Shown one piece after another: positions 1,460 to 61,393 of a stretch of DNA of 64,000 bases. Under the pieces are notes generated by a model that saw nothing but the letters and a program-made list of their open reading frames with translations, was not told the DNA's origin and searched no databases. The DNA lies in the NCBI GenBank assembly GCA_963681965.1, contig OY820579.1:559078-623077 (forward strand), given 5' to 3'. Origin of the DNA: a bacterium. GTDB lineage: Bacteria > Electryoneota > JAOADG01. Position numbers and translations under genes: made by a program. The stretch's first letter is position 1; each line of letters begins with the position of its first letter.

Positions 1460-1648
1460 AAAAAAATGATTTTTAAATCCATGAGAAAAGTGTTGCAGGG
1501 TTTCTGTTAGTATAGTAGATTTCATTCTAAAGTCTATCTGCACACACTTCTTGGTTAAAGTAACTGGCAATCGGAACGACCCATACTTCTCTTCATGACA
1601 GCTAACTTTCATTAGCAGGAATATACTTTGCGTTTAGGAGATAAATGT

Positions 1649-3151
1649 ATGTATCGGATGTTAATTTCAATCATCGCATTACTTGTTGCCTCCACCATGA
1701 GTATTGCGCAATTGACTATTGTTTCAACATCACCGTCCAACGGTGCAGTGAATGTTTCTTCACAAACTTCTCTTGAAATCACATTTTCAGCACCATTAGA
1801 TACATCAATTCGATATTCGTCGGGATGTCCGATCGCGATCTTACTCTCTGGTCCAACTCTTACAAATCCCAATTTAACATACTCGATGAGTACAGATCTC
1901 AGAACGATCCGATTTCCACTTACAATTCCGGTGAATACTGATTGTGGATTCATTATTTTTAATGCGCAATCGACAACAAGACAAGGGATGAGTCATCTCT
2001 ACGCATCGAATTTTACGAGTATGAGCAGTTTTGGAATTTATAATATCTCTGGTTCAATAAGTTATCCAGAAGGGAATCCTGTCAACTCGTTCGTAGCTTT
2101 GTTTCAATCCGGAAGTGACAATCCAATTTTATTCGGAGTATGCAGTCCCGGACAAGCAACATATACAATAAATGGATTGAGGGGTGGTGGACAACATTAT
2201 GCCCTTGTCGCAGGACTAGATTTAAATGGAGACGGTGAGTTAAATAATGATCCCGGCGGTTGGTATGATACAAATAACGATGGTGAACCCGATGAAATAA
2301 TCGTTGATAATGTCAATGTCTCCAATATTAATATCACGTTACATCTTGAATTGCCGATTACTGCCCTCGAGCGAATTGCAGCAGTCCGAGCCTATATTGC
2401 TTCGATCGATCCCAATGCAACAATCAAGGGACATTGGGGAGATGATGATGCAAATCTTCCAACCGGTAGAAGTTATACATGGCAATTCCGAGTACTGTCT
2501 CCACTGTTAGATAGTATGTTAGAGCTAAGAGTAAATTCTTATCAAATTCGTCGAAGTACGAGCAATCCGACTGAGCCTGGAATCGGGTATGGTCTTGATT
2601 TTCCGCTGAGCGGTATCGATAGTGATAGTGCATTCCGAGTTGCTGAAAGAAATGGTGGAGCACAATTACGCAATGCCTACCCAACAACCCATGTTGTCAT
2701 GACTTCTAAAACTGATTACGATGACCCGGAAAATCCGATTTTAACTTGGCACGTCTGTTACAATACGGAATCATCGCAATTTAATTATGTTCTCCGGATT
2801 GATATTGATGTGATATCCGGAGCGGTTAGACAAATTCTGTGGAATCCCGATCGGGGTGTTGACGATCAGAAGATCTTTTCTACTCCAGATTTTTGTTCAC
2901 TGAATGGCTGTTATCCGAACCCATTCAATGCGACCACTGAAATCAAATACACGATTGCAAAGACAAGTAATGTCGATTTGCGACTGTTCGATGTGACAGG
3001 ACGAGAAGTAGCGAAGTTAATCAACTTCGATCAACATCCCGGTAGCTACACCTATCGATTAAACGGAAGCGTGCTGGCAAGCGGCACGTACTTCGTTCGG
3101 TTGCAGACCGGTTCGACTAATCAGACTCAAAAAATCATTTTACTCCGATAA
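1649..3151 (+). CDS. Secreted protein with a T9SS C-terminal sorting domain
   Basis: ATG at 1649 follows aggag; the track start at 1628 is TTG. N-terminal signal peptide MYRMLISIIALLVASTMSIAQ. C-terminus CYPNPFNATTEIKYT...GTYFVRLQTGSTNQTQKIILLR is a typical Por/T9SS C-terminal domain. A hairpin follows at about 3185-3210. Confidence 0.8.
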   Translation: MYRMLISIIALLVASTMSIAQLTIVSTSPSNGAVNVSSQTSLEITFSAPLDTSIRYSSGCPIAILLSGPTLTNPNLTYSMSTDLRTIRFPLTIPVNTDCGFIIFNAQSTTRQGMSHLYASNFTSMSSFGIYNISGSISYPEGNPVNSFVALFQSGSDNPILFGVCSPGQATYTINGLRGGGQHYALVAGLDLNGDGELNNDPGGWYDTNNDGEPDEIIVDNVNVSNINITLHLELPITALERIAAVRAYIASIDPNATIKGHWGDDDANLPTGRSYTWQFRVLSPLLDSMLELRVNSYQIRRSTSNPTEPGIGYGLDFPLSGIDSDSAFRVAERNGGAQLRNAYPTTHVVMTSKTDYDDPENPILTWHVCYNTESSQFNYVLRIDIDVISGAVRQILWNPDRGVDDQKIFSTPDFCSLNGCYPNPFNATTEIKYTIAKTSNVDLRLFDVTGREVAKLINFDQHPGSYTYRLNGSVLASGTYFVRLQTGSTNQTQKIILLR

Positions 3152-3184
3152 CACATTTACAACCTCATAATCCATTATTGAATC

Positions 3185-3210
3185 GGCGGACTTTTCAGTC
3201 CGCCGGTTTC
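3185..3210 (+). terminator. Stem-loop (ggcggact-tttc-agtccgcc) after the T9SS gene
   Basis: Perfect 8-bp inverted repeat followed by ggtttc; the same ggcggact/agtccgcc hairpin recurs at 19250-19265 and 19293-19310. Confidence 0.5.
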
Positions 3211-3500
3211 GATTCTACCCATCCATAATTCGTGAAACTTTTTCTCCCGTGAGATGGAGGCGCTCCTCTCACGAGAGGCGACTCACCTCTCATTGGAGGA
3301 GCTCCACCTCCGAGGAGAGCAGCAAAAAAGAGGCGATTCAAACGATAGCGGGGAGTTTTAAAACGGAGTTCATGTCCATCACATCCATTCAAACGGAAGG
3401 TAGACGCTCGGCAAACCATTCTTTCACCCCTCCTCAAACAATGGGGGTGTAGTTTGTCATCGTAAGTACGTCAAACAGGTTTTTCATCGAGAGGTGAACC

Positions 3501-5195
3501 ATGATATACACAAGAATAGCTTCCGGACTTGATTTCATCGATGCAGAATTCGGCGGCATCTACGCCAACCGAACCTACTACCTTCGTGGTCCTGCACGTT
3601 CCGGTCGCACGACAATCGGTCTCCAGTTTCTGCTCGCCGGACTCGAAAACGGCGAAAACAGCATTCTGATCTCCAGCGACCGGATCGAAGACGTGATCCT
3701 GAAGTCGGAAACGATCGGTTTGACGCTGGAACAATATCTGGTGGAAAATCGCCTGATCCTGATGGAATATCCCAAGGAAATTCAAAATGGGCACTATCAG
3801 TTGGGTGGCGTGATCCATCTCCTCGGCGAGATCGAGAAATATATCAAGACGTACAATTGCACCCGAATCGTATTCGATACCCTGATGCCCTTATTACTAA
3901 AGGCACGGGATGCACAAGTCGCCAATTATGTTTACTCCTTAATGAATGCAATCGAAGCGCTTTCCTGCACCGCCTTCGTGACAACCGGCGAACCGAATAG
4001 CCCCCAGGCGGGTCGGATTGCCGAATTGATCGAAGATGCCGCTGCCGGCGTGTTCTCGACTTCGGCGGTTTCAATGAAGGATAGTCAACAGCGGATGTTC
4101 TGGGTGCACAAGATGGTCAATCCGATGACCCCGCCGACTCCTTATAAGACCAAGTTCGAATATGGTACCGGTGTCGTACAGGACCTCGGCGAGCGCGCTC
4201 CCGATATCCGCCGACCGAATACGGTCGAACAAGTAACCGGTCCGGTGAGCATTAACGACCTACCGATGCGAATAGCTGTGATCGATGGCGAAGAAGATGT
4301 CGTCGCGCAGTTCGAAGAGATCTTCCCGAAAGCACAACAGGTCGACGATTACAGTACCGATAGCGAATTTATTCGCGGTCACCGGGATGTTGGTTACGAC
4401 GTGTTGGTCGTGAATGCATCTTCGGTCGTGAATTGGTTTCTAGCGGTACACCAGATCCGCGAACGCAACGAGAAGTTGCCGATTCTGATTGTTTCCGAAC
4501 AATTAACGGCACAATTGAGTTATCAATCTGCGAAACTTGCCGGTGCCGACGCATTGTTCATGCACCCGTTGGTGAAGGGCGATGTCGTCCGTGCCTTGGA
4601 AAAAGCGCTGAAGAACTACAACACCTATCAGGAAATTGCCAGTCGGCTCGCAACTCGCACACAGCTATCCAATCTTCCCGAGGATTTCGGGTCGCTCCTG
4701 AACACCGTGATGGAATCGGACTTGGGTGGAAAGCAAGGCGATACACTGATTAGCGTTGGCGATTTCAAAGAGAAACTCCACGAGCAGATTTGGCGCAGCA
4801 GCCAAAAGCAATTGACGTTCGCAGTCGTGTCCTTCCGAATGATCAATACCGGCGAAATATCAAAACTTCAGAACCTGCCCCGCGGCTTGGAATTGGTCAA
4901 GCGTATGGCAGGGATTGTCGGAAATGCGATGCGCGGATTGAACGATAGCGCCTGTCGCAGTATGGACAAGATTGTGGTTCTCTTGGAGAATTGCGATCGC
5001 GAAGGTGCCGATGCATTTGTCGCTCGGGTCACTGCCGATGTGAAAACGGAATTGGGCGACAAACTCGGTGTTCAATTGGGTCGTCATCTGGTCATTTCAA
5101 AAGCGATGGCGATGTATCCCGAAGATGCCGACAATGTTCAGGATTTGCTGTCCCGGGTAACCGAAACCACCCGTAATTTCAAGTTAATTCACTAA
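3501..5195 (+). CDS. Three-domain protein: KaiC/RecA-superfamily ATPase-like domain, receiver-like domain and degenerate GGDEF-like domain, all with active-site substitutions
   Basis: N-terminal GLDFIDAEFGGI..YLRGPARSGRTTIGLQFLLAGLENGE matches the KaiC/RadA P-loop fold, but Walker A reads GxxxxGRTT (Lys replaced by Arg) and the catalytic Glu pair is replaced by SDRIED. The middle domain (RIAVIDGEED...YDVLVVNASS..LPILIVSEQ) is receiver-like, with the phospho-acceptor Asp replaced by Asn. The C-terminus (FAVVSFRMIN....RSMDKIVVLLENCDREGADAFVARV) has a GGDEF fold with the GG(D/E)EF motif replaced by SMDKI. ATG at 3501 follows gaggtg. Confidence 0.75.
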   Translation: MIYTRIASGLDFIDAEFGGIYANRTYYLRGPARSGRTTIGLQFLLAGLENGENSILISSDRIEDVILKSETIGLTLEQYLVENRLILMEYPKEIQNGHYQLGGVIHLLGEIEKYIKTYNCTRIVFDTLMPLLLKARDAQVANYVYSLMNAIEALSCTAFVTTGEPNSPQAGRIAELIEDAAAGVFSTSAVSMKDSQQRMFWVHKMVNPMTPPTPYKTKFEYGTGVVQDLGERAPDIRRPNTVEQVTGPVSINDLPMRIAVIDGEEDVVAQFEEIFPKAQQVDDYSTDSEFIRGHRDVGYDVLVVNASSVVNWFLAVHQIRERNEKLPILIVSEQLTAQLSYQSAKLAGADALFMHPLVKGDVVRALEKALKNYNTYQEIASRLATRTQLSNLPEDFGSLLNTVMESDLGGKQGDTLISVGDFKEKLHEQIWRSSQKQLTFAVVSFRMINTGEISKLQNLPRGLELVKRMAGIVGNAMRGLNDSACRSMDKIVVLLENCDREGADAFVARVTADVKTELGDKLGVQLGRHLVISKAMAMYPEDADNVQDLLSRVTETTRNFKLIH

Positions 5196-18824: not shown

Positions 18825-18899
18825 CGAGTTTCGCGTGCTTGGTGTTTGATTCTTGGTGTTCGGTTTTTGGTGTTCAGTTCCTGGTGCTCAGTGCATGGT

Positions 18900-19340
18900 A
18901 GCCCAAACCTCCGAACTCGCGTTCTTGCATTTTAGTAGGGGCGCCTCCCCGCGGGCGCACATTCTTTTATCATTTCATCTTTTCCCATCCCCCAACACCT
19001 ATCCCCTACCACCCATTTTGTTGGTGGCGCAGGCCTCCGAGCCTGCGTTCTTGTATCTTTTTTTTAAAGTACTGCCCAACTCCGATTGGACGAATCCCTG
19101 CTTTTCCGTAGGTCAGAACTTGTTCTGACCACCGCTAGTATCCTGATTTGTCGTTGCGAGGAAGATGCGTAGCATATGACGTGGCAATCTTCTCTTGTGT
19201 AGCCGCAGGCTTTAGCCTGCGTTTTTTGAATCATGTTTTCTGTGGTAGCGGCGGACTTCAGTCCGCTTTTTTTTTATTTTTTCAGGAATGGCGGACTAAA
19301 GTCCGCCGCTACCAAAAATCGGGAGGGCTCACGAGCCATC
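18900..19340. repeat. Cluster of GC-rich palindromic REP-like hairpins and terminator-like stem-loops
   Basis: tagtaggggcgcctccccgcgggcgc with gcgttcttgcatttt. gcaggc-ctccga-gcctgc with gttcttgtatctttttttt. ggtcagaac-ttg-ttctgacc. gcaggc-ttta-gcctgc followed by ttttttt. gcggact-tc-agtccgc followed by T9. ggcggact-aa-agtccgcc. gggagggctc-ac-gagccatccc. The shared motifs (tagtaggggcg, gttcttgtatc, gggagggctc) recur at 21598-22180 and 43480-43850. Confidence 0.6.
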
Positions 19341-19342
19341 CC

Positions 19343-22300
19343 CTACTTCAATAACACGATCTTCTGTGTCTTGCTGAACGTTCCCGCCTGCAATCGTACA
19401 AAATACGTTCCACTCGCTAATCGTGAACCGTCGAGCAATACCCGATACGTTCCGGGACGCTGCTCGCGCTGCACAAGTGTCGATACTTCGCGACCGGTGA
19501 GATCGTAGAGACAAAGCTCGACGTGAGATGAAATTGGAAGGGTGTAGGAAAGAGTAGTGGTGGCGTTGAAGGGATTCGGAAAAGCCTTAATGCTTGCGCT
19601 TTGCGGAAGAATCGTTAACTTTACTTCATTTGCATCAGTCGATTCCGGCAAAGTAATAAACTTCACGATAAAGGCATCCCACCCGCCTTGATTCGTGCTA
19701 TCGATTGCAGAACCGGTCACTGGGAAATTGGTACTATTCGTTCTGCCAACAATCGCTAATGTATCACTACCCACTAAAACCGAACCTTCACAATTATCGT
19801 AATTATTGCCACCGATAAATGTACTGTACATTAGTGTATCCAAAGTACTGTTAAACTTCATGATGAAACCGTCAGTACCACCACCATTGTAGAGTGAATC
19901 GAAAGAGTTGATCGTGACAGGGAATTCGGTGCTGACTGTTACGCCAGCTGAATAAACACAATGATTGAGTCGATTAAACTGAGCACTGGTTGAGTAGTCG
20001 GTCATGCTACCACCTATATATGTGCTTAAGAAAGATGATTCCGTCGATGTATAGGTCATGTGTCCGACGAAGGCATCACCTAATTCACCGCCATGATAGG
20101 TCGTGTCGTAACCATGAGGAGATACTCGAAAATCGGAACTACAAGTAATTCCAGAGATAAACCAACCACCGAGACCGTCATTTGATAGACCATAGATTCG
20201 ATCGGTACAATTTCCACCGATATAAGTACTATAGGCAAGGGATCTGCAATCGGTAGAAAACACTGTAAGGAAACAGTTTCCACCGCCACGCAACTGAGAA
20301 CTATAGCAATTGGATGTTGTCGGAAGATTTGTACTAGCTGTCATCCCAGCAATCGCTACCCTTCCAGAGTCATCAAAATCAATTTTATATGCGATCGTTT
20401 GAGAATTTCCACCAAAATAAGAACTGTAGATAAGGTTCGATCCAGTACTGTTAAGGTGAGTAAGAAATACATTGGTACTGTAAAATGGCAGAGTACTATA
20501 AGCATCGGAAGTACAGGGAAAATTCAAACCCTCAGTGTACCCAGTTACGTAAGCACCACCGTTTGCATCGCTGATAACAGATTGAGCTTCTTGGAGAGCA
20601 TTATTACTGCCGAGAAGGAAACTATAGATGATTCGCGAACCGGATGCGTTGAGACGCATAATGTAACACTTATTATCATGGATCGGTTGTGTTCGATCGA
20701 AGGCAGTAGCTGAAACTGGAAATCCTGCACCACCCGTCGAACCGCAGACAATTGTTCCACCGGTAGGATCGGCACAGATTCCAACAGCAAAATCATCACT
20801 ATTTCCACCGAGATAGGTACTGAACAGCAGTTGATTGTCTAACGAGTTGATTGAAGATACAAAAACATCCGTAGCGGAAAGTGTCGTATCGAAAGCTCCA
20901 GATGTTACCGGAAAATCGCTACTCTGCGTGTCGCCCGCGACAACGATATTTCCAGTTGTAGTTTTACAAATTACCATTCCTTCATCTGTACCACTTCCCC
21001 CCAAATACGTGGAATACACCAGCGGATCAATTCTGAGCGTCTGCGAGGCATCATATCCAATCGGTAAATCGATCGCGAAGACATTTCTCGTCTCGAGTCT
21101 GAACTGTGCTGCGACATCGTTTCCGCGAGCGCCATTCGAGGTGGTTTGGTAGGCGCCCGGAATTTTCATCCGCAATTCACCTAGGGAGGTCATGAGTGAC
21201 AGTTCATTCGACAAGAGGGAGTCGGACACTCCTGTCCGACTCCCTTTTGTGACAGAAATATCTGAGTCGACGGACAAGAGTGTCCGTCCTCCGCCTGCGA
21301 TCGGTGCTTCCAATCCTTCGCACACCATCTGGATTTGCTTCGGATCGGCACCGGGATGCGCGACGAAATCGAATTCGAGATGCCCCTTGCTCTCGTAAAA
21401 TTCGACATCGATTCCCGCCCACACCTCGCGATACACCACGCGTGTAAAATTGCGGCAATCCGGTGCCCACTTCGAAGAATCATTCCCGAGAAAATAGTTG
21501 TTGTGCCACGATAGTTCACCCTGTGCATCAATCCGCTTTGCTTGTGCGAAGGGTAGGTCGGAATTTATTCCGACTTCCTCTTGTGTCGAATATTTTTCTG
21601 TAGGGGCGTATGGCATTCGCCCTAATCTTGTATCTTGAATCCTGATTTTGTATTTGCGAGGAATGAACGAAGGAACGTGCGAAGCACTTCCGAAGTGGAA
21701 TGACGAAGCAACCCCGAAGGGCTCACCGAAGGTAATCTCCTCCTGAGTCTTTGATTCATTTAAAGAGTAGATTGCTTCGTCACTTCGCTGCGGCTTTCCG
21801 CCTTCGGCGGACGATCCTTCGCTGCGTTCCTCGCAAAGACAAGTGAAAGCATCTTGATCGGATAGGGGCGTATGCGATTCGCCCCTACGGGAATCAACAA
21901 ATCTAAATTTGAGCGCGTGAGATTTTAAACGGGAATGATGGATACGACCATTGGGATCGAATCGTGCATCATTAACGGACACGGGCGGTTCGCGAACCGC
22001 CCCTACCAAAGAAGAAGGATCAAAAAATGTCAAGAGTGGATTGCCACGTCCGCCGCTTTGCGGCGTCCTCGCAATGACAGAATTAAATGCGGTGGGCGAA
22101 CACGGGGGTCCGCCCCTACTGGAAAAAGGATCGACGGGCGGGCGCGGGGACCCGCCCCTACTTGAGTCAACAATTGAGGTGACGAGGGTGACACCATCGC
22201 GCTCAAGGAACCAGGTGAAACCGTCGCGGCGGACTTCGCACTTGTAGAGCACGGCACTATCCCACTGTCCCTTGTTCTCGGTGAATTGGAAGGGATGCGG

Positions 22301-22399
22301 CAAGCGCGACGATTGTACACTCACCGCTAACGCGGAGTGCAACCACAAAACAAGCAGTAATAAAACAAAATAAACGGTTCGGGAAAGGTCTCGCGGCAT
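19343..22399 (-). CDS. T9SS-secreted SBBP (beta-propeller) repeat protein whose N-terminal region contains a roughly 580-bp in-frame block of REP-like repeat DNA
   Basis: ATG at 22397-22399 (MPRDLSRTVYFVLLLLVLWLHSALA signal); the track start is TTG. FTENKGQWD...WFLERDGVTLV, then ...NYFLGNDSSKW...EFDFVAHPGADPKQIQMVCEG, multiple YSTYLGGSG.D.G SBBP repeats, and a T9SS C-terminal domain (FPNPFNATTTLSYT...GTYFVRLQAGTFSKTQKIVLLK). Residues about 75-270 (SSRGGSPRPPVDPFSSRGGPP...) are encoded by repeat DNA. Confidence 0.7.
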   Translation of the reverse strand: MPRDLSRTVYFVLLLLVLWLHSALAVSVQSSRLPHPFQFTENKGQWDSAVLYKCEVRRDGFTWFLERDGVTLVTSIVDSSRGGSPRPPVDPFSSRGGPPCSPTAFNSVIARTPQSGGRGNPLLTFFDPSSLVGAVREPPVSVNDARFDPNGRIHHSRLKSHALKFRFVDSRRGESHTPLSDQDAFTCLCEERSEGSSAEGGKPQRSDEAIYSLNESKTQEEITFGEPFGVASSFHFGSASHVPSFIPRKYKIRIQDTRLGRMPYAPTEKYSTQEEVGINSDLPFAQAKRIDAQGELSWHNNYFLGNDSSKWAPDCRNFTRVVYREVWAGIDVEFYESKGHLEFDFVAHPGADPKQIQMVCEGLEAPIAGGGRTLLSVDSDISVTKGSRTGVSDSLLSNELSLMTSLGELRMKIPGAYQTTSNGARGNDVAAQFRLETRNVFAIDLPIGYDASQTLRIDPLVYSTYLGGSGTDEGMVICKTTTGNIVVAGDTQSSDFPVTSGAFDTTLSATDVFVSSINSLDNQLLFSTYLGGNSDDFAVGICADPTGGTIVCGSTGGAGFPVSATAFDRTQPIHDNKCYIMRLNASGSRIIYSFLLGSNNALQEAQSVISDANGGAYVTGYTEGLNFPCTSDAYSTLPFYSTNVFLTHLNSTGSNLIYSSYFGGNSQTIAYKIDFDDSGRVAIAGMTASTNLPTTSNCYSSQLRGGGNCFLTVFSTDCRSLAYSTYIGGNCTDRIYGLSNDGLGGWFISGITCSSDFRVSPHGYDTTYHGGELGDAFVGHMTYTSTESSFLSTYIGGSMTDYSTSAQFNRLNHCVYSAGVTVSTEFPVTINSFDSLYNGGGTDGFIMKFNSTLDTLMYSTFIGGNNYDNCEGSVLVGSDTLAIVGRTNSTNFPVTGSAIDSTNQGGWDAFIVKFITLPESTDANEVKLTILPQSASIKAFPNPFNATTTLSYTLPISSHVELCLYDLTGREVSTLVQREQRPGTYRVLLDGSRLASGTYFVRLQAGTFSKTQKIVLLK
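21598..22180. repeat. REP-like palindromic elements embedded in-frame inside the SBBP gene
   Basis: ctgtaggggcgtatggcattcgccctaatcttgtatc (21598-). ggataggggcgtatgcgattcgcccctacggg. cgggcggttcgcgaaccgcccctacc. cgggggtccgcccctactgg. cgggcgggcgcggggacccgcccctacttg. These are the same hairpin units as the intergenic REP-like elements, and the sequence between them resembles non-coding DNA. Confidence 0.6.
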
Positions 22400-22544
22400 C
22401 GCTGCACCTCTGGCATAAGGCAAGTAGGGATCTTAGAAAATAATATAATCAATATTCTTAAATATTCTGACTATTGTCCAACCCTCTTCAATCTTGCCGT
22501 GAGAACTATTGTATGTGGCGCAAAAATAAGTGATATATCGAGGT

Positions 22545-43469: not shown

Positions 43470-43479
43470 CGAATTTTTT

Positions 43480-43850
43480 TTCCGTAGGGGCGTATCGCAT
43501 ATGCCCTTTTCTTTTTTTATTCATGTCGTTTTTTTTAGTAGGGGAGGGCTCCCACGCCCTCCCGTGTTTTTTTTAGTAGGGGGGCATCCCCGCATGCCCC
43601 CGTTCTTGTATCTTTTTTCCGTAGGGGCGTATGGCATACGCCCTTTTCATTTTTTATTCATGTCGTTTTTTTAAGTAGGGGATGGCTCCCACGCCCTCCC
43701 GTTCTTGTATCATTTCTCCGTAGGGGCGTATCGCATACGCCCTTTTCTTTTTTTATTCATGTCGTTTTTAAGTAGGGGAGGGCTCCCACGCCCTCCCGTT
43801 CTTGTATCATTTCTCCGTAGGGGCGTATGGCATACGCCCCATTTGTCCGT
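43480..43850. repeat. Tandem array of about 3.3 copies of a roughly 98-bp REP-like unit, each with two hairpins and a T-tract
   Basis: Unit: ccgtaggggcgtatSgcataYgccc - ttttcttttttattcatgtcgttttt - agtaggggagggctcccacgccctccc - gttcttgtatcatttct. Copies start near 43489, 43622, 43720 and 43817 (partial). The first copy carries an extra agtaggggggcatccccgcatgccccc hairpin. Confidence 0.8.
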
Positions 43851-44026
43851 CATGAGGAGGACACCGAATCAAACGACAGGCAAGAGCGCCTGTCGCAACG
43901 GATGATGAATAAACACATCGCAGGCTCGGAGGTCTGCGTCACCGACAGACGGCGTCTGGTGCTGCCTGCCGCTTCGGACGAATGCGATTCGCCCCTACGA
44001 GAACAATCGCGCTCTCTTCTGGATTT

Positions 44027-47018: not shown

Positions 47019-47121
47019 GTTCTTGAAAATAAGTTGTCCTGATTCGGTGTCAGGCTTCGCCTGACCTGCGGGCGGACGCGGGGATCCGCCCCTACTACCG
47101 ATAACAACTTCTTTTCAAGAG
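47019..47121 (+). mobile_element. MITE-like element of about 102 bp with 17-bp terminal inverted repeats (copy A)
   Basis: tcttgaaaataagttgtcc...gataacaacttcttttcaagag. The internal part carries gtcaggc-ttcg-cctgac and gcgggcggacgcggggatccgcccctact hairpins. Near-identical copies lie at 61291-61393 (inverted) and 63961-64000 (truncated by the window end). Confidence 0.75.
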
Positions 47122-51713: not shown

Positions 51714-52064
51714 ATGTCAAAGCGAGTTGATAAGATTCTTGCAAAATGGCGTGTAACTGGACAACCTATCCCGATCAAAGAGGTGTACGCCGTTTTAGAA
51801 GAGTATCTTAACAATTATTGGCGTAAAACGAATGGCACATCTCATCAAATTCAAATTGAACATCCGATTCTGTCTTCGATTCCTTGTGTTAGCAATCCAT
51901 TAGGGGTAATGACTATCTGTGTAGATGGAAACAATGTTAAACCTTTGTATTGTAGACGCTTACTTAAAGTAATCGACGCACTTAAGGATAACTCCCATGA
52001 CAAAGAAAACCTTAAATTATTACTTGAATCAGAGATATCCGATTCAATTGATACAACTGACTGA
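51714..52064 (+). CDS. hicA: HicA-family (YcfA-like) toxin with N- and C-terminal extensions
   Basis: ..YWRKTNGTSHQIQIEHP...VDGNNVKPLYCRRLLKVIDAL matches the YcfA/HicA pattern (G-S-H-x-x-x-x-H-P ... lksILkqagl). Sits in an AT-rich islet. Its 3' end overlaps the antitoxin gene. Confidence 0.55.
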   Translation: MSKRVDKILAKWRVTGQPIPIKEVYAVLEEYLNNYWRKTNGTSHQIQIEHPILSSIPCVSNPLGVMTICVDGNNVKPLYCRRLLKVIDALKDNSHDKENLKLLLESEISDSIDTTD

Positions 52065-52545
52065 TAATGACGGAGGAGGATGGAATGCTTCGATTCCGCA
52101 ATTGGGATCGTACACATTTCAAGGCGATGGCGATACTATTGAAACGGCACTGGAGAATTTAGACGCAGCGAAACGTGAATTCTTTCAATTGGCGATTGAT
52201 CGCGGTATTGAACTTCCTGATCCAATTAGCGAGAATGAAGAAAATTATAGTGGAAAATTTGTTGTACGTGTTCCTAAAAATCTTCATCGCTCGCTTTCAG
52301 AAGCTGCAACTGAAAATGAGTGCAGTTTGAATCAGTACGTCGTCTCACTACTATCTTCAGGAGTGACATCGAAATATTTCAAAGCTGCTGCTGACAAATG
52401 GCAACAAGAAGTATTGCATCAAATGCTCCAAGAAATTACTCATGTTAGGAGTTTACTGCCTCATAGGCATGATTTTGATCGAAGTCTTGTAGATTTCCAA
52501 TCGCACTCTCGAGAAATTAATTATCCATATGCAAGGGCGATTTGA
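51997..52545 (+). CDS. hicB: HicB-family antitoxin with a roughly 60-aa C-terminal extension (candidate chaperone-addiction segment)
   Basis: N-terminal RNaseH-like HicB domain (YPIQLIQLTDNDGGGWNASIPQLGSYTFQGDGDTIETALENLDAAKREFF). Ribbon-helix-helix (GKFVVRVPKNLHRSLSEAATENECSLNQYVVSLLS). Then an extra tail ..SKYFKAAADKWQQEVLHQMLQEITHVRSLLPHRHDFDRSLVDFQSHSREINYPYARAI. The start could also be TTG at 52024. Confidence 0.65.
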   Translation: MTKKTLNYYLNQRYPIQLIQLTDNDGGGWNASIPQLGSYTFQGDGDTIETALENLDAAKREFFQLAIDRGIELPDPISENEENYSGKFVVRVPKNLHRSLSEAATENECSLNQYVVSLLSSGVTSKYFKAAADKWQQEVLHQMLQEITHVRSLLPHRHDFDRSLVDFQSHSREINYPYARAI

Positions 52546-61290: not shown

Positions 61291-61393
61291 TCTCTTGAAA
61301 ATAAGTTATCATCGGTAGTAGGGGCGGACCCCCGCGTCCGCCCGCAGGTCAGGCGAAGCCTGACACCGAATCATGACAACTTATTTCAAGAGC
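61291..61393 (-). mobile_element. MITE-like element, copy B, inverted relative to copy A
   Basis: tctcttgaaaataagttatc...gacaacttatttcaagag. The reverse complement matches 47019-47121 at roughly 95% identity and includes the tagtaggggcgg...ccgcccgcaggtcaggcgaagcctgac core. Confidence 0.75.

Follow-up and report, generated by a model that had tools for sequence, protein, structure and literature searches.

In-frame palindromic repeats in three loops of a family of secreted DUF7948 proteins

To our knowledge, the part played by selfish palindromes in protein evolution is documented by few cases, mainly from Rickettsia, and repetitive extragenic palindromes (REPs) lie by definition outside genes. 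Here we describe REPs and other palindromic repeats read in frame within a gene for a secreted protein, P0001, in a window of 64,000 nucleotides (the whole stretch of DNA analysed: contig OY820579.1, positions 559,078 to 623,077) from a bacterium of the lineage Electryoneota. The gene is one of about 21 dispersed paralogs with unrelated neighbours, all on one contig of 4,339,467 bp (ENA ERZ21878129), and encodes a cargo protein of the type IX secretion system (T9SS) that carries a DUF7948 domain. We hold it probable that the genome's own palindromic repeats have repeatedly colonised three permissive loops of this domain, the states that kept the reading frame surviving as disordered extensions.

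Intragenic REPs of the GTAG/CGTC type were described by Di Nocera, De Gregorio and Rocco (2013), for example in Opitutus terrae, Thauera and Rickettsia conorii (PMC3733652); most are dimers encoding 20-30 amino acids, and the largest clusters encode 43-82 (PMC3733652). The repeats described here resemble them in being palindromes of 20-40 bp with GTAG at one end, mostly extragenic and sometimes read through in open reading frames (ORFs), be it singly, as dimers or in clusters. What differs is that nine or more elements, drawn from several families, lengthen a single domain of 245 residues by about 180 amino acids; they occupy three fixed loops, and the phenomenon recurs in about 20 paralogs of one secreted family and in a related genus. 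The published elements are dispersed among unrelated genes, of which many serve DNA repair (PMC3733652). Rickettsia palindromic elements (RPEs; Ogata et al. 2000), in the outline given by a review (PMC10969869), measure about 100-150 bp, encode one conserved peptide per family and occur in many unrelated genes. Like them, the present elements are selfish palindromic repeats lying in frame in coding genes, translated and apparently compatible with the fold; their units are mostly of 22-26 bp, however, and are read in both orientations and at least two phases, giving different peptides; in the roughly 135 kb that was read at the DNA level, out of a genome of 4.34 Mb, their coding copies are confined to one paralog family. 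An identification as RPEs was rejected on all three counts, since the units are too small, keep to no fixed coding frame and, in the sampled DNA, are not distributed among unrelated genes. REP doublets forming hairpins (REPINs) are defined as extragenic and are mobilised by a single-copy REP-associated tyrosine transposase, or RAYT (Bertels and Rainey 2011, PMC3116915; PMC3337134). Inverted REP doublets with a spacer are found here as well (in zone B of the sister protein P0002, in the pair REP_B1/REP_B2, at locus L049, in intergenic DNA at 19237-19319 and in zone C), but those within the genes are coding. [quoted passage not shown] A sequence-only reading of the window had called REPs in an intact ORF unusual, which is true, although these precedents exist (PMC3733652, PMC10969869).

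Palindromic repeats inside the coding sequence

The REPs in the gene belong to the same families as those between genes. The window has 13 copies of the motif CGCCCCTAC (0.21 expected), five of them within 21598-22180 and the others in intergenic DNA (18935, 43484-43998, 47087 and 61318), and the in-gene hairpins align at 89-96% identity to intergenic copies of the window (43482-43999, 47069-47096 and 61317-61344). Units of 22-26 nt with stems of 7-12 bp have the size and symmetry of GTAG-tagged REPs, and all six in-gene REPs, like the intergenic copies, begin with GTAGG; in the sampled DNA they also show the distribution of this class, being numerous, dispersed, mostly extragenic and in several cases placed directly 3' of stop codons. 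Perfect hairpins with the GTAG tag number 14 in the window (0-5 in shuffled sequences): nine are intergenic, four lie in the host gene and the remaining one is a weak six-pair match in another ORF. Eleven further loci supplied 11 kb of intergenic DNA, with 18 such hairpins, 30 kb of paralog genes, with 20, and 31 kb of other genes, with no convincing one. Over the window and these loci together, about 83 kb of other coding DNA held no convincing intragenic copy, all of those found belonging to the one paralog family.

The sequence-only reading had proposed a single insert of about 580 bp made of REP hairpins, with limits at 21598-22180. The hairpins that it quoted (21600-21622, 22094-22119 and 22136-22161) do belong to the same families as the intergenic copies, but the insert is not single: alignment of homologues and a hairpin map resolve the repeat DNA into two arrays (zones A and B, Table 1) parted by 93 nt of native coding sequence, whose LKSHALKFKF strand is kept in homologues from other genomes (as LKSHALKFRFV in P0001). 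REP_B3 and a hairpin doublet (zone C) lie beyond the proposed limits, and the interval contains, besides GTAG REPs, a 41-nt palindrome (PAL_A) and the 195-nt MITE-like palindrome. The window gene carries six GTAG REPs (four sense and two antisense), PAL_A, the MITE-like palindrome and the zone C doublet. PAL_A has an intergenic sibling with the same termini at about 19148-19188. The MITE-like element has the make-up of a MITE, with TIRs (94% complementary), a length below 500 bp and no transposase; it contains further inverted repeats and is translated as ...CLCEERSEG...IPRKYK... within the host ORF. It is present in P0003 and P0004 and missing at this site from P0002, and no copy outside the paralogs was found in the DNA sampled. 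REP_B1 and REP_B2 form an inverted pair. A comparable pair, of about 100 nt, stands in P0002 with no 195-nt element inside it, so that the window gene shows a nested arrangement. Apart from the inverted pairs listed above, many in-gene REPs are single or form direct arrays.

The host protein runs from a signal peptide through the DUF7948 domain and SBBP beta-propeller repeats to a T9SS C-terminal sorting domain (Pfam E-values of 2e-40 for DUF7948, 9e-9 for SBBP and 4e-9 for Por_Secre_tail); its N-terminus is hydrophobic, and every feature of a DUF7948-SBBP cargo protein of the T9SS is present. The Pfam match to DUF7948 is split by the inserts into two stretches. In an AlphaFold2 model of residues 1-470 (78 aligned homologues, predicted template-modelling score (pTM) of 0.63), the only long segments with a predicted local distance difference test (pLDDT) below 50 are residues 95-146, 178-277 and 373-393, that is, zones A, B and C; the conserved flanking strands have values of 90-98, and the native strand between zones A and B (residues 158-168) about 96. 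Because the zones match the low-pLDDT segments, the repeats occupy loops between beta-strands, and the model predicts that these loops are disordered, including the low-complexity stretch SSRGGSPRPPVDPFSSRGGPP... that had been correctly translated from the sequence. A second T9SS cargo gene of the window, the ORF at 1628-3151, ends in a sorting domain (2810-3148) that is 45-63% identical to that of the paralog family.

Table 1. Positions of the repeat elements, the host gene and the related intergenic clusters in the window
Feature	Positions	Strand	Description
Host gene	19343-22423	minus	1026-codon ORF; database protein P0001 begins at ATG 22399
Zone A	21983-22162	minus	60 codons; loop between strand GVTLVTSIV and the native VSVNDARFDP segment
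REP_A1	22136-22161	minus	GTAGGGGCGGGTCCCCGCGCCCGCCC; sense GTAG, phase 1, SRGGSPRPP; 93% identical to intergenic 47069-47096
REP_A2	22094-22119	minus	GTAGGGGCGGACCCCCGTGTTCGCCC; phase 1, SRGGPPCSP; 93% identical to intergenic 61317-61343
PAL_A, 41-nt palindrome	22038-22078	minus	GTCATTGCGAGGA...variable hairpin...GACGTGGCAATCC, translated VIARTPQSGGRGN; termini TTGCGAGGA...GGCAATC
REP_A3	21983-22006	minus	GTAGGGGCGGTTCGCGAACCGCCC; phase 0, VGAVREPP; identical intergenic copy in the genome (L030 4625-4648)
Native segment between arrays	21890-21982	minus	VSVNDARFDPNGRIHHSRLKSHALKFRFVDS; not repeat DNA; conserved beta-strand
Zone B	21553-21888	minus	112 codons; loop between LKSHALKFRFV and AKRIDAQGELSWHNNYF
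REP_B1	21863-21888	minus	GTAGGGGCGAATCGCATACGCCCCTA; sense, phase 1, RRGESHTPL; 92-96% identical to intergenic 43482-43840
MITE-like palindrome, 195 nt	21648-21842	minus	Nested between REP_B1 and REP_B2; TIRs TTGTATTTGCGAGGAA / TTCCTCGCAAAGACAA
REP_B2	21600-21622	plus	GTAGGGGCGTATGGCATTCGCCC; antisense GTAG, GRMPYAPT; 92-96% identical to intergenic 43614-43839
REP_B3	21553-21574	plus	GTAGGTCGGAATTTATTCCGAC; antisense, VGINSDL, other sub-family; identical intergenic copy (L031 1405-1426)
Zone C	21217-21292	minus	Inverted hairpins C1 (21266-21292) and C2 (21217-21244); GGGRTLLSVDS...SRTGVSDS
Predicted peptides from repeat zones			GGSPRPPVDPFSSR, MPYAPTEK
Intergenic repeat cluster	18830-19342		Directly downstream of the gene stop; GTAG hairpins at 18933 and 19108-19130, PAL copy, doublet 19237-19319
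Intergenic GTAG REP array	43472-44026		Same families as the in-gene REPs

Several observations concern the intergenic copies next to the genes. The REPIN-like inverted doublet of the downstream cluster (GTAGCGGCGGACTTCAGTCCGC ... GGCGGACTAAAGTCCGCCGCTAC) lies about 25 nt 3' of the gene stop, and an Rfam scan gave no match at any gathering score, only generic hairpin noise and sub-threshold microRNA-like matches for 19237-19319. A GTAG REP also stands right after the stop codon in several paralogs (L031 4494, L034 4328, L035 4508 and L032 5491). The hairpin GTAGGTCAGAACTTGTTCTGACC, present downstream of the window gene at 19108-19130, recurs about 160 nt upstream of three paralog starts (L032 2338, L035 1339 and L036 1338), where it may belong to an upstream region that they have in common. 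No terminator-like site was found on the sense strand inside the gene.

Reading frame, phase and turnover across the paralogs

Over 21598-22180 (583 nt), the frame of the gene has no stop codon, and the other five frames have 5, 13, 10, 8 and 6. Calculated analytically, such an open frame has a probability of 3.5e-4, and among 20000 shuffled sequences 5 were open, in line with the 'roughly 1e-4' estimated from the sequence alone; in intergenic repeat clusters of similar size, the longest open stretch never exceeds 92 codons. In the family, 19 of the roughly 21 paralogs are intact, and most members have modules derived from repeats in these three zones, combined differently from copy to copy. 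The domain, measured from FTENKGQW to IDPLVYS, ranges from 245 amino acids in P0019 to 425 in P0001, the most heavily loaded member, with about 180 extra residues. In the ten copies read at the DNA level, zone A measures 246, 165, 162, 75, 117, 162, 165, 99, 150 and 117 nt, and zone B 375, 180, 402, 81, 246, 267, 237, 81, 81 and 245 nt. Each zone therefore has seven distinct lengths that are all multiples of three, the single off-frame value being the 245 nt of the L031 copy (1668-4480), which has a -1 frameshift inside zone B where P0005 has 246 nt. The other broken copy, L030 (1904-4573), is interrupted outside the repeats, by a stop in frame within conserved sequence (WIDA*GELSWHNNYF); both could be true pseudogenes or long-read errors. 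Because 14 distinct zone lengths are all multiples of three, selection keeps the frame, and the frame-preserving selection suggested for the window gene by the sequence-only reading is strongly supported at the level of the family.

Apart from frame, the content of the zones is haphazard. Sense GTAG heads fall in phase 0 (n=13) and phase 1 (n=13) and never in the phase that would read TAG, antisense heads fall in two phases, and one REP family is translated as VGAYGIRP, RRGESHTPL or GRMPYAPT depending on phase and orientation. These mixed phases and orientations point to many separate events screened only for frame and stop avoidance, with no designed coding frame.

The product itself also argues for translation across the arrays. 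A signal peptide is encoded upstream of the zones and a sorting domain downstream of them, so that a functional product, as predicted from the sequence, requires a full-length polypeptide read through the repeats. P0001 and its sister copy P0002, 55 kb away in the genome, have identical C-terminal 406 residues, and within this stretch 1050 nt of propeller-region DNA are 100% identical (window 19343-20560 versus L028). In the last 50 codons, which form part of the T9SS sorting domain, the two genes show 13 synonymous and 0 non-synonymous differences. This pattern indicates a recent conversion or duplication together with purifying selection on the T9SS tail.

In the conserved cores of ten paralogs, amino acid identity is 0.8-1.0 and identity at four-fold sites 0.54-0.66 (0.51 in the divergent propeller), and this low four-fold-site identity means that the paralogs are old and that the N-terminal domain is held by selection on the protein. 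Recent gene conversion was considered as a general cause of the N-terminal conservation and rejected on the same synonymous-site identities, although individual tracts exist. The repeat modules have amino acid identities of 0.6-0.9 and four-fold-site identities of 0.8-1.0; being better kept than the cores at synonymous sites, either they postdate the paralogs or constraint acts on their nucleotide sequence. Gene conversion does take place: one tract is a 324-nt core of P0017 (L033) and P0018 (L119), 98.5% identical and ending exactly at zones A and C, with flanks of 62-79% identity, and the two genes differ in the contents of both zones. The sister genes P0001 and P0002, for their part, each have modules in common with more distant paralogs.

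A related organism, whose GyrA is 86% identical, also has many paralogs. Some are free of repeats and have domains of 229 amino acids (229-249 amino acids among repeat-free homologues), and several have, in zones B and C, GTAG REPs or doublets of REPs that are read in frame (e.g., GTAGGGGCGGACCCCCGCGTCCGCCC, translated SRGGPPRPP). Since the related genus has the same habit, the habit is older than the window genome, and a very recent insertion, the other option of the sequence-only reading, is not sufficient by itself. The nearest GyrA sequences named to phylum (Zixiibacteriota, Calditrichota, KSB1, LCP-89 and Ignavibacteriales) are 54-59% identical, and the lineage belongs to the FCB group. 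Further away, a more distant homologue, L054 (Ga0247841_10005403), has different DUF7948 insertions, one of which (QRIKQIERIEPGSESASSVSSAVN) falls in the region of the G.LEFDFV strand, conserved in other respects; insertions into DUF7948 loops thus seem to be widespread. Strain-level polymorphism of the inserts was sought; the protein cluster has a single member, the genome is absent from the GTDB representatives, and the nearest metagenomic relatives are 50-66% identical. A search for other hosts with the joined zone A and B peptides recovered only one pseudogene's N-terminal fragment and failed to find known positives, including P0001 itself; this failure is probably due to low complexity or to word-index limits and is uninformative.

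Elsewhere in the window, the ORF at 51997-52545 resembles HicB-family antitoxins (Pfam 3.8e-14) and is followed by an overlapping ORF of 154 amino acids with no Pfam match.

Probable colonisation of permissive loops and its alternatives

In the scenario that we favour, the elements would spread by the usual REP/REPIN route, presumably with a RAYT-type tyrosine transposase, and would tend to land beside existing hairpins, so that arrays grow and nest. Insertions into coding DNA would normally be purged, whereas three loops of a large paralog family would be structurally permissive; there, a copy would survive if it preserved the frame and its GTAG tag did not fall in the TAG phase, and it would be translated as a disordered loop extension rich in Pro, Gly, Ser and Arg. 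Further insertion, loss and gene conversion between paralogs could then shuffle the modules into a different mosaic in each copy. The part played by a RAYT and the preference for existing hairpins are the conditional steps of this account; kinship with the intergenic repeats, location in loops, filtering for frame, purifying selection on the gene and recurrence are what the data above establish.

Several results weigh against this scenario. No Y1 transposase (RAYT) domain was found in nine small ORFs of the window, within the roughly 135 kb of the 4.34-Mb genome that was readable; the transposases seen near paralogs are of the IS3 and DDE types. No element showed a target-site duplication or a clean pair of empty and filled sites, and the comparison with P0002 gave no clean empty site for the MITE-like element. 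Purely neutral tolerance likewise does not predict that the hairpins of zone C are nearly invariant in 9 paralogs, synonymous sites included (3 of 49 columns are variable, versus 21 of 56 elsewhere), while their 23-nt spacer and flanks vary, or that, within the sampled DNA, the zone C motif CGGACANNNNTGTCCG was found in the family only. Finally, a conversion tract that ends exactly at zones A and C may mean that the zones are more than passive passengers. As a separate observation, IS3-family pairs (HTH_Tnp_1 + rve) lie directly downstream of P0017 and P0019 (L033 5146-6281 and L118 4279-5414), which are the two most repeat-poor paralogs.

These same points feed the rival that survives best, namely exaptation, in which the zones would be functional as hypervariable disordered surface loops, recombination junctions or cis-acting hairpins in mRNA or DNA. 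Besides the invariance of the zone C stems, the restriction of their motif to the family and the tract bounded by zones A and C, it draws on the fold of the zone C RNA (z = -4.8, window 21196-21300), on the modules that P0001 and P0002 each hold in common with more distant paralogs and on the persistence of the habit in a related genus. We nevertheless judge exaptation unlikely, because the module content is haphazard (both orientations, several phases and different peptides from the same REP), because the repeat-poor P0019 and P0017 appear equally intact, because high nucleotide identity may equally reflect young copies and because a heterologous insert halts a conversion tract whether it is functional or not. 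The zone C element itself is missing from P0019 and replaced in P0018 by a different inverted doublet at the same place. In a narrower form, REP/REPIN hairpins may have been co-opted as cis-acting junctions, which would bring together the invariant stems, the limits of conversion tracts, the exchange of modules and the hypervariable surface loops; on the sequence evidence, we regard this as a rather doubtful proposal.

A decaying pseudogene, or a very recent insertion left open by luck, is much harder to sustain. Two of about 21 paralogs are broken (the L030 stop and the L031 -1 frameshift), and the window gene bears the largest load, but the chance of its open frame alone is about 3e-4, and 19 paralogs stay open across 14 distinct zone lengths, all multiples of three. 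The position of the zones between the signal peptide and the T9SS tail, with the consequent need for read-through, and the 13 synonymous against 0 non-synonymous differences from P0002 make this explanation very improbable.

A native low-complexity linker, its likeness to intergenic repeats being coincidental or reversed in direction, would fit the fact that several peptide modules are common to paralogs, and sharing of the segment among orthologues with protein-level conservation is what the sequence-only reading had named as evidence that it does not derive from repeats. Paralogs do share modules, so this was formally found; the repeat origin stands all the same, because the modules are kept at the nucleotide, synonymous-site level and not as protein, one REP is read in different frames and orientations, identical copies are intergenic and repeat-free homologues have domains of 229-249 amino acids, which leaves a native linker hardly credible. 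Repeat-induced mis-joins in a long-read metagenome-assembled genome are just as implausible: the source is a single-contig metagenome assembly and one frameshift could be a homopolymer error, but this architecture is seen at more than 12 separate loci, each with unique flanks of its own, and in independently assembled relatives (JGI, GTDB), with the frame preserved across loci.

A natural series of repeat-loaded domains

Compared with the systems described so far, what is new here is the scale (about 180 residues added to a domain of 245), the restriction, within the sampled DNA, to three loops in a single family of secreted paralogs, the recurrence over about 20 paralogs and two genera, and the nesting of several element types together with an excess nucleotide conservation of hairpins. 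One genome thus offers a natural series, from a repeat-free domain of 245 amino acids to a heavily loaded one of 425, which shows at which of a fold's loops insertion is tolerated, that selection acts for frame and stop avoidance only, and that modules turn over faster than their host genes. For annotation, it is also a warning that what passes for a long Pro/Gly/Ser/Arg 'linker' in a protein of a metagenome-assembled genome can be repeat DNA in translation. Should the hairpins prove functional, REP biology would be tied to the way in which secreted proteins diversify and, if co-option is true, the zones would represent a cassette or diversification system of T9SS cargo proteins that is driven by repeats.

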